Assembly: GCA_951406725.2 (NCBI GenBank) | Contig: OX597821.1 | Span: 53,382,001-53,446,000 of the forward strand | From: Octopus vulgaris | Lineage: Eukaryota | DNA length: 64,000 nucleotides | Reading direction: 5' to 3' | Shown: piece by piece, positions 15,501 to 53,213 of the stretch | Layout of the letters: each line of letters opens with the position of its first letter | How positions within the stretch are numbered: position 1 is the first letter of the stretch | The notes under the pieces: generated by a model | Database searches by the model: none | The model's input: the letters and a program-made list of their open reading frames with translations, nothing else | Told to the model about the DNA's origin: nothing | Made by a program: the position numbers and the translations under genes

Positions 15501-15800
15501 TTATTTACATTATTTACATTTGAAGGATATTTGTCGTCATCATGTTAGTTGTTAACACAACGTTTCGGTTTCATCAGGTGTCTTGGGAAAATTTCGAACA
15601 TGGGTTCTCATCCCTAAGGTATTTTTCGATGTTATTATTATTACTATTATTATTTTCAGGTCACTGCTTGGAATCGAACTCTTAACCACTACGCCATAGG
15701 CCCGTAGTGTTAACAACAAACAAAATAAGGACATTTATCCATCAAATGTATATAATGTAAATAATATACATAATTCTGCATCTCTTAAATATAGAACTGT
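15501..15800 (-). mobile_element. tRNA-headed short element with hammerhead remnant(s) and an inverted tail duplication
   Basis: Minus-strand A box TGGCGTAGTGG and B box GAGTTCGATTCC (15670-15697). HHR ACAC-CUGAUGA-A-ACC-GAAAC-GU-U-GUGU (15555-15581). Inverted repeat 15501-15558 / 15707-15764. Confidence 0.75.

Positions 15801-25749: not shown

Positions 25750-25752
<3 letters not shown>
25650..25752 (-). repeat. Short dispersed repeat, also at ~47819-47900 (+)
   Basis: Shared 'gcaaca..ttgcttg.cc.cataccgaaaa.ttagaaatagcag.caa'. Confidence 0.7.
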
Positions 25753-25798
<46 letters not shown>

Positions 25799-26007
25799 GT
25801 TAATCCAAACATGAAAGCACAAAAAACCACAAGGCGAGGACGTGGAACAAATATAGTATTATTGGACGCTCAGGAAAGAAGGAAAGAAGGCGGGTTTAAC
25901 GTTTCGAGCGGAGCTCTTCGTCGGAAACATAGGAGAAGGAAAGATCCAGAGAAGGGAAGACAGAGGAAAAAAAATCGCCAGCGGTACACACGTGGTCACA
26001 TTTTGAA
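25799..26007 (-). mobile_element. Family A copy 2, with the best-preserved minimal hammerhead of the family (25894-25928)
   Basis: Minus strand: GUUU-CCGACGA-A-GAGC-UCC-GCUC-GAAAC-GU-U-AAAC. Embedded in (TA)n. Confidence 0.8.
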
Positions 26008-26023
26008 TATATATATATAGAAA

Positions 26024-35084: not shown

Positions 35085-35233
35085 GAGCCACAAGATTTTT
35101 GTTTATTCTCCCTCTGTGTATTTCCTCATATTCCTTTCTACTGAAGAGCGTAGGCTCGAAACGTAAAAGACCTTCTGACTTGCCCGAGCGTCAAACTAAT
35201 ACACCTGCTTGTTCATACACCTGCATGTTGTTC
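35085..35233 (+). mobile_element. Family A-related pLTR-like repeat with a hammerhead-like motif (35134-35169)
   Basis: CUUU-CUACUGA-A-GAGC-GUAG-GCUC-GAAAC-GU-A-AAAG. The downstream 'gagcgtcaaactaatac..ttgttc' resembles the family A tail. Confidence 0.65.
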
Positions 35234-35379: not shown

Positions 35380-36286
35380 TCTTTTATCTTTTACCTTTTA
35401 CCGGTTTCAGTCGTTAGAAAGCGGCCATGGCGTGGCACTCCCTTCATTTTTTAGTCGACTGAATCGATCCCAGTACTTATTTTATCGAGCTCTTTTTCCG
35501 AACTACTAATTTACGCAGACGTAAACGCACCAACACCGGTTATTAAGTGGTGATGAACTACAAACACAGACATACAGGGTCACACACACACACATAAATC
35601 AAATGTAGAACAGAAAAAACACAACGAAGAGAAACCGGCAAAACAACATGCGGAACAAAGAACGATAGCACGACAACGGTAAACAGGACAAAACATGATA
35701 CACGGATCATTCGCAGCCAATTGCCTTTTCAGTCGGAGTCCGGAATGTCCATGTAGTTTCGCCCACTTTTCTCCGATAATACTCGAAACCGGCTGGGCCA
35801 GGGACTTAAGCTAAAAGCATTAGGCCCCTGAGCAAGGCAAACGAATGTACATATACGGTAACAAATAAGTAAACAATAGAAAGGGTTTTTCGTTTATCGG
35901 ACGAACGTAACTTATGAAATAGAATTATACATATACAATGGACAAAGGCCTTTCGGCTATAGAGCAAAAGGAAAATAATTATACATTTACAACAACAATA
36001 AAACAAAACAAACAAGGTCTTTCGACTATCAGACGAGTGTAGTAAGTTAGCGCAAAGAAAATGGAAATGAAAAATCTTAACCTGATCGGGAGGAAGGACA
36101 AAACAGAACAGACGCGACATATATACGACAGGTTTCTTTCAGTTTCCGTCTTTCAAATTCACTCACAAGGCTTTGGTTGGCCCAGTGCTATAGAAGAAGG
36201 TACTTGCCCAAGGTAACATGCAATGGGACTGAACTCGGAACTATCTGGTCGGGAAGCAAGCTTCTGCCGCACAGCCATTCCTGCGT
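35380..36286 (-). mobile_element. SINE family C split by a ~520-bp insertion (3' part 35380-35596, 5' part 36118-36286)
   Basis: Both halves are colinear with 13701-14090. The break lies in the internal CA microsatellite. Confidence 0.85.
35597..36117 (-). mobile_element. Non-coding element X1 with a conserved structured core (35708-35847)
   Basis: Nested in a SINE. Shares ordered motifs and helices with 52440-52850. Confidence 0.65.
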
Positions 36287-43964: not shown

Positions 43965-45338
43965 AAAACTATTTTTTTTTACATAATTGCTTGGAAGTGC
44001 TCAGGTCGAAGCCGAGACACTAGACGTTGCATAACTTGATTTAAGAAGAGACAACATTTAGATAAATCATTCTACTGTTATCATTTACATCAACATAATA
44101 AATATATAAAACACAATATTTACAGCAAAACAAAGAACAAATAAATATATATATTATTTAGAATAGAAACAAGAAATACATGATGTAAAAATATAAATGC
44201 AAAGGACAACATAAAGGGTGATATATCGATTCAAAATCATATTAAATTTCAGATTAAAAAGGTTGTATTAAGAATTAAAAGTTGTAAAATATATCAACCG
44301 TAGTTAGAAATCCTAATGATGTATTTAAAAGTTTTAAAAGTTCTAAAGAAATGTTTATTGAGGGTTACAGCACCATATAAGAGCTATTTGGACGGCCGTG
44401 TCTGGAGTCCATTTCTCTACAAGGTATGAATACTTTAGTTTCACACTGACATTATCCCCTTCATCAGGAATAAGGAAATAGACGTTTAAGATTGACGAAC
44501 TGTAAGAGAAAGGGAAATTTTAGATTACATTATGTTAATCGTCGGCTAATCTATCACACGCCAGTAACTTTTACGATAATTCACGCTTATATACGAAAAG
44601 GAATTTCTGGTGTAGTATATGATTTAGTATATAAAACAAAGTTCAATAAATTTAATCATGCTTTTCGTAAAATGGAGGAGATTAAATGTTGGTGTGGAGT
44701 GAAATTATTATTATTCATGTAGTTATACGATCGTGTCATACAGAAAGCCAATAAATTCATTGTAAGAATCTGGGTTGACAAAAAGTATTCTTCAGTAGCA
44801 AAAAATAAAGAAAGAAAAAGAAGCGAAAAGGACGTTAGAATTACATAGGGATGGTGTTCGCAGTAATTGTTCTTATAGTCGTATCTATTTAAAACACGAC
44901 TAAAGGGTCTCAGTTTGATGTTGACATATATAAAAAATTTATAAGCGTGACATTCTCTTTATAGATTAGTATGAAGGAGCTAATTTTAAACTCCCATGTA
45001 TGAAGTAAAAACCAGAGGGGTTGTGTTTAACGGAAAAAGACTAACCAAATAAGGGAGTATGGAATTTTAAATACCGGGGACTAAAATTTATATTTAACTG
45101 TCAATAATCAATACGGTTTAACGATTAGTTTGAAAAATGTTTAATAGCAATTATAAAGAGTTTGTGCTATATAAACTATGAAAAGATCGTATAGCTACAT
45201 GAATGAAAATAGTTTCAATCCATATTAACATCTAATCTCCATTTTACGAAAAACATAATCGAATTTGTTGAACTTTTAAATCAGATACTTAATATAATTA
45301 AATAAGTTTTCATATCTACGCTAATTTACATCAGTGAA

Positions 45339-51335: not shown

Positions 51336-52439
51336 CTATCACTACTTACATAACTACATACATAACTACTTACATACATACATACATATATACATACATA
51401 CATACATACACACACATATGTACATGCACACACACATGCACACACACACACCAACACAAACACACACATACATGCACACACTCACACCCACACCCACATA
51501 TCTTTTATGCAGTTGTTTAGCAAGATTCTCTGTGTAAAATCGTGTCTTGAAACAGATATTCTTATCTCAGATCCTGTCCCGCGCGAAGTGGAGAGAAGTG
51601 GACAGAATATCGTTAAAGAGGTCACAGAATGTGTGGCGAAAGAACTGACAAATAGACTGATAATAATTATAAAGCTAAAGTGAAAAGTAAGTAAATAGAC
51701 TGTTCGTTTATTGACAAATCAAACTGACTATACCTAAATATGACAGTGTCTGTGTGTATATATGTATGTAAGTATGCATATATATGGATGTCGGCTGATT
51801 ATTGTGTAAGGGAATTGCCTGTTAATAACCTGTTAACCTATGCCAGCCGTTGTAGATTTTAATAAAAATATCATATAGATATCCTTTGTAATTTAAATAT
51901 AATGCAAGATCATGTCAATAGAAAGAAAATTTGTAACAAAATTGGCAGATACGTGTACTTTTAGAAAGCTAATTTAATATAATAGCATGTTTTTATCTCT
52001 TTCATTATAGGATAATAGGCCTTGTTTTGCAGAGACAATCTTGCTTGAATGTGCAAAGATTATAGAAATATGTTTGTGTACACATTTTTGTGGTTGCGTG
52101 TGAATATGTATATGTGTTTGTTTTCCGATACGTTCTGCCAATGTGCAAAATTATTTACAATATATGGAGTTATTTCTGTTGTGGCTACCTAAAAACTAAC
52201 CTGTTCCACCCTGACTACTTCATATTTAAACTAACAACCATACCAACGTGGAGCATTGCCTCAAAACCAGGCACCATTACTTTTTTTTAGCTCAAAAACT
52301 AAACAAATTTCAAAGTTTTGCAACATTGATTAGAATATTTCATAGTTATGGTAAGGCAAATCCTGGAGAATATATTGACATATTCTTTCCATATATGTGT
52401 CCCTTCTTGTTACATATATATACATATATATATATGTAC

Positions 52440-52850
52440 ATGTAAAAAAATACAAACTGGGACAAGGACGCAAAACATTTAGAAGACGATACAAAAAACA
52501 CGGACGGGACATTCGAAGCCTTCAATCTTCAGTCAATAACGGATCATCCTCGTAATTTCGGCTGATTAATCTTGAGATTGCTCCGACCTGGCCAGCCCCA
52601 ACGGAAAATCTAAGCCAAGCGCATTAGATTCCTTGGAAGAAAGCCTCGAATGTATACAAAACAAGGACGGGGAAACGGACGATTGTTACACGAATAAGAA
52701 TACAAAAATACGTAAAAACAATAATGATAACACGAATAAGAATATGAAAATACGTAAAAACAATAATGATAATAATAATAACAAAAACAGGACGTCACAG
52801 ACAGACGTCTTTTCGACAGGATGAGTGAACTTTGACCTGGCGCATTAGAA
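52440..52850 (-). mobile_element. Non-coding element X2 with a conserved structured core (52509-52653) and a 42-bp tandem duplication (52688-52771)
   Basis: Shares motifs and helices with X1. Abuts a (TA)n tract. Confidence 0.65.
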
Positions 52851-52977
52851 AAATGCCTTGGGGCAAAGAGAGAAAACAAATGTGTCTTGCTGCGTCAGTT
52901 AGTCACGTGTGAGGAGAAGAGAGAAGAAAAGAGAGACAGATGAAGAGAGAAAAAAGGGAACAAGGAACAAAGGAGGA

Positions 52978-53019
<42 letters not shown>

Positions 53020-53155
53020 TCAAAATGGAGTGCTAAGTGTGAAAAGCAGAGAAATGTAGGAGAGGGGAGAGAGAGAGAGACAGTGTTACAGAGTCGTACC
53101 AAGTTCAAAGAAATATGTACTTACATATAAGACCAAAAAGGGTACGGGCGCCGCT

Positions 53156-53213
53156 ATATATATATATGTATATATATATATGTATACATATATATATATA
53201 TACACATATATAT

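Follow-up and report, generated by a model that had tools for sequence, protein, structure and literature searches.

The window analyzed here, a 64-kb stretch of Octopus vulgaris DNA, carries on its minus strand two diverged repeat copies, X1 and X2, which share a structured RNA fold of about 140 nucleotides (Table 1). A preliminary description of this DNA had reported a closing helix CAUUCG/CGAAUG, a UAAUGC...GCUUA hairpin, and a 5-bp helix around 28 nucleotides followed by GAAA and then CUGAARA. All of these parts are present, in an order common to X1 and X2. Each of the three linked motifs was found at X1 and X2 only within the window, and a covariance model (R1) recovered these two copies and no other place in it. 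The folding z-scores of the minus strand, measured against shuffled sequences, were −2.3 for X1 and −2.5 for X2.

Both copies carry sequence defects. Position 16.2 is U in X1 but G in 26 of 30 family copies, and the G8 position is A in X1 but G in all 30. As judged from its sequence, the X1 window copy is likely inactive because of this replacement at G8. The X2 copy lacks one nucleotide in helix 'I' and has one mismatch in stem I and one in stem III. Because both copies are mutated in stems I/III, the hammerhead pairing described below is hidden in them and a strict structural descriptor recovered neither.

Table 1. Positions of the two repeat copies and of the parts of their fold in the window
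Feature	Position	Strand	Remarks
X1 element copy	35594..36118	-	5′-truncated, non-coding; (GT)n microsatellite adjoins end; extent from BLAST against family loci
X1 fold	35708..35847	-	
P1 5′ strand, X1	35831..35847	-	closing helix of four-way junction
P2 hairpin, X1	35799..35830	-	UAAUGC/GCUUA type
Stem II 5′ strand (10.1–10.5), X1	35794..35798	-	GCCCA; upstream position, not after CUGANGA
Helix 'I' 5′ strand, X1	35786..35793	-	helix 'I' of type SGC, connecting far ends of stems I and II
Putative k-turn short strand, X1	35783..35785	-	C3n G2n A1n; from sequence signature only
Block S, X1	35771..35782	-	stem III 3′ strand, H17, stem I 5′ strand
H17, X1	35777	-	A; predicted scissile bond between 35777 and 35776
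Block G, X1	35753..35765	-	stem II 3′ strand, G12-A13-A14, stem III 5′ strand from A15.1
Putative k-turn long strand and helix 'I' 3′ strand, X1	35739..35752	-	3-nt bulge, GA, 3b
Stem I 3′ strand and CUGANGA core, X1	35726..35738	-	core reads CUGAAAA in X1
P1 3′ strand, X1	35708..35725	-	immediately 3′ of A9
X2 element copy	52411..53176	-	about one 735-nt monomer, young family
X2 fold	52510..52652	-	
Predicted cut, X2	52576	-	after C
CUGAAGA core, X2	52526..52532	-	

X1 and X2 are members of two large dispersed repeat families. The X1 family, whose monomer of about 1 kb is known from the tandem spacing in locus L025, gave 339 first-look candidates (85–91% identity among the 40 scored), and the X2 family gave 1971 (97–98% identity). 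Family copies have a fixed 3′ end about 110–130 nt beyond the predicted cut, and their 5′ ends vary. Tetraloop hairpins of the form GUC-GAAA-GAC and GCC-GAAA-GGC recur 5′ of the ribozyme (window 35895–36020, minus strand; L102:1305–1320; L045:1360–1380), three in X1 and one in other families; they are a possible protein or reverse transcriptase (RT) binding element.

A hammerhead core in rearranged strand order

In family copies, the 28-nt loop pairs with two downstream core strands. It is the substrate strand, and its partners are the strand after GAAA, forming stem III, and the strand before CUGANGA, forming stem I. The partners of GUAGU-A-UCGGAG in the X1 family are ACUAC, which follows GAA, and CUCCGA, which precedes CUGAAGA; those of GCAAU-C-UCAAGA in the X2 family are AUUGC and UCUUGA. 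Stem II is the 5-bp helix preceding GAAA. Along the chain, the stem II 5′ strand is followed by a helix I strand, block S, block G, and CUGANGA. This order of site (S), GAAA (G), and CUGANGA (C) is not a circular permutation of hammerhead types I–III, and the fold departs from both the cyclic C-G-S order and the pseudoknot-free three-way junction of those types. A type II reading, with stem II after CUGANGA, fails in both X1 and X2. While CUGANGA and GAAA were both part of the search patterns, and their presence is therefore by selection, the site triplet across families is NUH and N7 takes any of the four bases.

On these sequence grounds, the fold belongs to the hammerheads, its strands being arranged in a non-circularly permuted (type-SGC) order, and does not represent a new ribozyme class. 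It is almost certainly a hammerhead derivative, and intact copies are quite likely to cleave. The preliminary description had missed the two pairings of the 28-nt loop and was mistaken in leaving the RNA unassigned, without hammerhead topology: the topology is that of a permuted hammerhead in which the chain is additionally opened between A9 and stem II. Its broader expectation, that a structured, covarying RNA occupies the place of the hammerhead in such elements, was borne out. Of 160 Rfam matches in the window, the best 150 by E-value were microsatellite-driven miRNA only, with none at the fold, and six intact loci gave no Rfam match at the gathering score.

Pairing was counted at 70 places (30 returned loci and 40 from the 100 matches listed) of the 909 that the 3′ half by itself had matched; the upstream strand is absent from that search pattern. 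Stem III was paired in 258 of 350 cells (74%) and stem I in 333 of 420 (79%), compared with 22–47% in shifted-register controls for these two stems. Stem II and helix I were paired in 61% and 62% of cells, the shifted registers of all four helices giving 22–56%. At 21 places the upstream part was truncated or unrelated; in the other 49, pairing reached 91% for stem III and 93% for stem I, and in these ungapped counts stem II (71%) and helix I (69%) paired less well. U16.1 was present in 46 of the 49 and H17 was other than G in 47, neither being in the search pattern, and N7 was U, G, A, or C in 18, 13, 10, and 8 places, respectively. In 27 copies hand-picked to span the families, a choice that leans toward structure, 83.4% of cells were paired compared with 66.6% after shuffling and 25–45% in slid controls, and 20 of 24 pairs had changes on both sides. 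Collectively, stems I–III and helix I all covary across families.

Two further pairings proposed in the preliminary description did not hold up. A GGA-NNN-UCC hairpin was paired in 76.5% of cells compared with 72.5% in shuffles, 49 of 500 of which were equally high. A pseudoknot between the hairpin loop and CUGAAG lacked covariation, the loop base opposite N7 pairing in 29% of 134 copies. Four bases on the P2-loop side are complementary to CUGA in 79–100% of the same 134 copies, and a transient off-state through this pairing is still conceivable. ViennaRNA, which cannot model pseudoknots, folded intact copies into nested structures without stems I and III, suggesting that a rival fold competes with these two stems.

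Stem III and helix I are separated by an internal loop with a 3-nt bulge and GA facing GA, the standard k-turn signature. It was found in 95 of 120 descriptor-passing copies; the other 25, whole families among them, are without it at the standard place. The short-strand GA, which in contrast to the long-strand GA was not in the search pattern, has G in 43 and A in 45 of 49 places. The commonest 3b·3n pairs are U·G (63), U·U (13), and C·C (11), and G at 3n or C at 3b is reported to permit ion-induced k-turn folding (PMC4382518). Such a kink would return stem III to the distal ends of stems I and II. In a young X2 subfamily (L225, L226, and L227), P2 is duplicated and longer and UA replaces the short-strand GA; its tandem copies are nonetheless near-identical, and the kink may thus be dispensable.

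Hammerheads of type SGC, with the order S-G-C, were discovered in metatranscriptomes and validated (HRIMA-1 and variants; Eckert, Friedrich, Weinberg, and Weinberg 2023, PMC10085705). In the parts of that paper available to us, none of these RNAs comes from the genome of a known organism, and single constructs of 79–81 nt cleave during transcription. The X fold shares with them the strand order, the CUGANGA, GAAA, and NUH motifs, stems I–III formed as pseudoknots, a short linker between stems I and II (5 nt in X1 and X2, 1 nt in Naiad copies), and a helix I that joins the strand after the stem II 10.x strand to the strand before stem I. Compared to type SGC, however, block S is preceded by the 10.x strand of stem II and the helix I strand, the inserted helices P1 and P2 separate A9 from G10.1, and a k-turn signature connects the two SGC ends. 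Furthermore, the published RNAs are metatranscriptome sequences, whereas the X fold belongs to an animal retroelement with about 12,000 copies in genomic DNA.

Because the partner of stem II is located upstream, two helices stand between A9 and G10.1, giving a four-way junction. In type SGC, block C is uninterrupted, stem II starting within 1–2 nt of A9, and at most 1–2 nt were assumed to be insertable there (PMC10085705). In 14 family representatives of the X fold, the strand after A9 and the strand before GAAA pair at only 0–3 of 4 positions (0 in X2, 2 in X1), and the strand after A9 forms P1 instead; a downstream stem II of at least 4 bp occurs in 12 descriptor hits only. No base is left over at the junction in X1 and a number of other families, while in X2 two unpaired bases face two; the sequence of P2 differs between families and the helix at the junction persists. 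Core insertions were listed by Perreault in 2011 (PMC3088659), and the part of that list available to us includes no inserted helix at A9/10.1. Opening the chain between A9 and G10.1 could cripple the core.

Genomic copies, insertion ends, and relation to Naiad elements

The 2.8-Gb genome was searched with a 3′-half pattern (GAAA, 7 nt, GA, 13 nt, GA, CUGANGA), the reversed pattern serving as control. There were 909 + 10,957 matches (11,866 in total) compared with 15 + 3 (18) in controls, and two further pattern variants gave 705 compared with 14 and 642 compared with 53. The spacing is fixed: 24 nt occurs in about 11,900 places, whereas 23 nt, one base shorter, is near background (65 compared with 39 in controls). 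A spacing-free descriptor was passed by 13 of 30 X1 loci, 26 of 30 X2 loci, 94 of 347 other loci of this genome, and 11 of 30 Naiad-like loci. In viral contigs, none of 37 (4 + 33) fixed-spacing matches passed the structural descriptor; in metagenomes, where 2 of 64 parts were scanned with a loose fixed-spacing pattern, none of 120 passed; and GTDB genomes had no match to one tight fixed-spacing pattern. Further unrelated families with the same split form of the SGC fold and spacings of 23–26 nt turned up in the flanks of L118, L217, L233, L251, L345, L362, L363, and L465. Since these families came to light incidentally, the count for the whole genome is too low. The X2 stretch is also listed among runs under five species labels (unverified), which suggests that the X2 family is not confined to this assembly.

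The 5′ ends of copies were examined in two samples with a few loci in common; positions are numbered such that the base next to the predicted bond on its 3′ side is −16. A tail motif lying 77 nt beyond G12 picked out 74 X2 copies, from 70 of the 100 matches listed, of 953. Among the 59 that reach +23, none ends at +23 to +4 and 27 end at +3 to −16; the remaining 32 continue past the cut site, and 2 of them end in the next 20 nt (p = 1e-4). This sample also has 13 breaks at +48 to +76, about half of which are internal deletions, and core and stems are intact in 12 of its 74 copies only. Among 181 copies picked by the core, 59 end at 0 to −16, with 8 exactly at −16 and none at −17 or −18, and 8 of the other 122 end at −17 to −33 (p = 2e-8). 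Most ends stop 1–19 nt before reaching the predicted bond, which requires the assumption that the last bases are lost at integration. A pile-up of ends that stops at the predicted cut fits copying of cleaved RNA.

Naiad Penelope-like elements (PLEs) were described with a (TA)n preference and partial tandems and without a canonical hammerhead (Craig, Yushenova, Rodriguez, and Arkhipova 2021, PMC8557442). In the parts of that paper available to us, the only flags are 'HHR_core/half_core', and eight Naiads are marked 'HHR_half_core', with widely separated halves of the core on either side. The 54 published consensi were read by eye, a procedure that misses words split at line ends and assigns some names by file order. 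Ten of them were seen to carry the split-SGC fold, including P1 and P2, at their 3′ end: Bfor (whose stem I has just 2 bp), one Clytia element, Amil, Aacu, Anas, Naiad-2_Movir, Plae, EuTe, Obim, and Ovul. The octopus Naiads (Obim and Ovul) have the k-turn signature and the 24-nt spacing of X, whereas coral Naiads have a bulge instead. Six Naiads of the nematode section (Naiad-1, -2, and -3_Nbra and three more) appear to have a C-S-G order with helix I, a permutation known from two published sequences in the literature available to us, and two of the spider section resemble unsplit SGC. No such fold was seen by eye in the Naiads Ppla, Dcar, and Omin, and no CUGANGA in any of the bivalve Naiad 3′ UTRs. 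The orders S-G-C, G-C-S, and C-S-G differ by rotation of a single cycle, and tandem duplication of pseudo-LTRs could therefore interconvert them.

In this genome, the Naiad-type fold gave 1315 first-look candidates. At locus L617, an RT-coding stretch is followed by a 3′ UTR and then by the fold. Compared by eye, this locus matches the octopus Naiad consensi in the literature; the Naiad RT fragments were recognized by neither Pfam nor PDB, and the assignment relies on reading against the published consensus. Linked RT-coding sequence, which the preliminary description had suggested looking for in long copies, is present in Naiad copies with the fold, but around copies of the X1 and X2 families an ORF search returned unrelated neighboring elements only, with no ORF joined to any X copy. 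We therefore infer the enzyme that mobilizes X.

X-type copies resemble Naiads in their microsatellite or (TA)n flanks, partial tandems (monomers of 595–926 nt), inverted 5′ pieces, and short 3′ extension, features that are common to other PLE clades. They also share the fold with the 3′ UTRs of Naiad_Obim and Naiad_Ovul and with the Naiad copies of this genome. Unlike Naiads, they have no ORF, and outside the fold no sequence likeness to the Naiad UTR was detected. X1 and X2 are likely decayed, non-coding, and non-autonomous Naiad-type Penelope-like retroelements. Animal non-LTR retrozymes (Li, Clavereau, and Pollet 2026, bioRxiv 10.64898/2026.07.22.740005; Cervera and de la Pena 2020, PMC7229834) are similar in being non-coding tandem monomers of a few hundred nucleotides, with one hammerhead each, derived from PLE pseudo-LTRs. 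Retrozymes, however, carry type I hammerheads while that of X is permuted, and X copies are mostly dispersed 5′-truncated monomers or dimers. A search of the open-access literature found neither a permuted hammerhead in a retroelement nor the split form.

Canonical GIY-YIG PLEs also occur in this genome. Fragments with a C-terminal GIY-YIG (Pfam E 0.0085) and a pseudo-LTR with a degenerate canonical hammerhead core lie beside X-type copies at L015:263–1033 and L102:2271–3035, both on the minus strand. In the window, a minimal canonical type I-like core of the Penelope type (CUGAAGA, short stem II, GAAAC) is located at 35141–35170 on the plus strand, about 560 nt from X1, and weaker canonical candidates are at 15563–15577 and 44439–44467, both on the minus strand. 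Hammerhead-like cores reading CCGACGA and GAAAC at 456–479 and 25901–25924 (minus strand) are carried by copies of a 260-nt repeat (311–573 and 25751–26019) that are 90% identical.

Interpretation and implications

Taken together, X1 and X2 are very likely decayed copies of families of probably non-autonomous Naiad-type PLEs, in which the 140-nt fold is a complete, rearranged hammerhead core predicted to cut the RNA after NUH in the 28-nt loop. Read-through transcripts would fold into the permuted hammerhead, and its cut would fix the template's 5′ end. A Naiad RT starting internally, at a downstream position, would then produce short copies that stop at the cut, as internal starts of this kind were shown for an anole PLE (PMC11167929), while uncut, re-ligated, or jumped templates would give full and tandem copies. 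With somewhat less certainty, non-circularly permuted hammerheads, which until now were known from viroid-like RNAs of metatranscriptomes, are probably the working ribozyme of much of the Naiad clade, in the split-SGC form in a ctenophore, cnidarians, an acanthocephalan, a clam shrimp, and octopus and in the CSG form in nematodes; the octopus form would use a k-turn and be active in vivo, its cut site left in thousands of insertion ends.

The interpretation of the insertion ends depends on what produced the pile-up. If it resulted from RT stalling at a stable structure or from an internal transcription start, the RNA could be a structured cis element of a new class, in line with the preliminary description. 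The shortfall of most ends relative to the predicted bond would agree with stalling; nevertheless, the cliff falls, in two samples, at the base predicted by hammerhead analogy, no end lies in the 20 nt before GAAA+3, and the full set of hammerhead core bases and stems is present, which together make this explanation extremely improbable. It is also doubtful, though less so, that the RNA descends from a permuted hammerhead that no longer cuts alone and now serves as an RT-binding or protein-assisted element, its cleavage requiring the Naiad protein or a k-turn binder of the L7Ae family. The anole PLE hammerhead was cleaved only with its protein, cleavage being dispensable for insertion in vitro, and RNA-seq gave no reads ending at the hammerhead site (PMC11167929). 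The frequency of the k-turn signature, the stable nested alternative folds, and the many copies that continue past the site point in the same direction. However, the catalytic bases, NUH, and a free N7 are kept across more than 12 families, and protein-aided cutting would be hammerhead cleavage all the same.

Minimal PLE hammerheads are reported to be active as dimers, and the ribozyme of X might likewise form in trans, with the substrate strand of one monomer pairing with blocks G and C of another, in which case a pseudoknot would be unnecessary. The occurrence of the elements in partial tandems and the self-complementary CCGG in helix I of X1 and X2 are in keeping with such an arrangement. 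It is nevertheless very unlikely: the palindrome is absent from most other families, and the fixed linker lengths fit the cis geometry of type-SGC RNAs, which cleave as single constructs (PMC10085705). A cis-acting permuted hammerhead is the explanation preferred here.

If this is true, non-circularly permuted hammerheads, hitherto a rare find in metatranscriptomes, would turn out to be present at high copy number in animal genomes, and nematode Naiads would contribute many natural examples of type CSG beyond the two in the published record available to us. The CUGANGA–stem II block, regarded as uninterruptible, would tolerate a four-way junction, and owing to this junction canonical and SGC descriptors would both miss the fold. 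These observations offer a candidate answer to the question of why Naiads seemed to be without a ribozyme. The insertion ends would be genomic evidence for a Penelope-like RT using cleaved RNA as its template, a point left open by the anole study, and proteins of the L7Ae family could gate a natural hammerhead that contains a k-turn.
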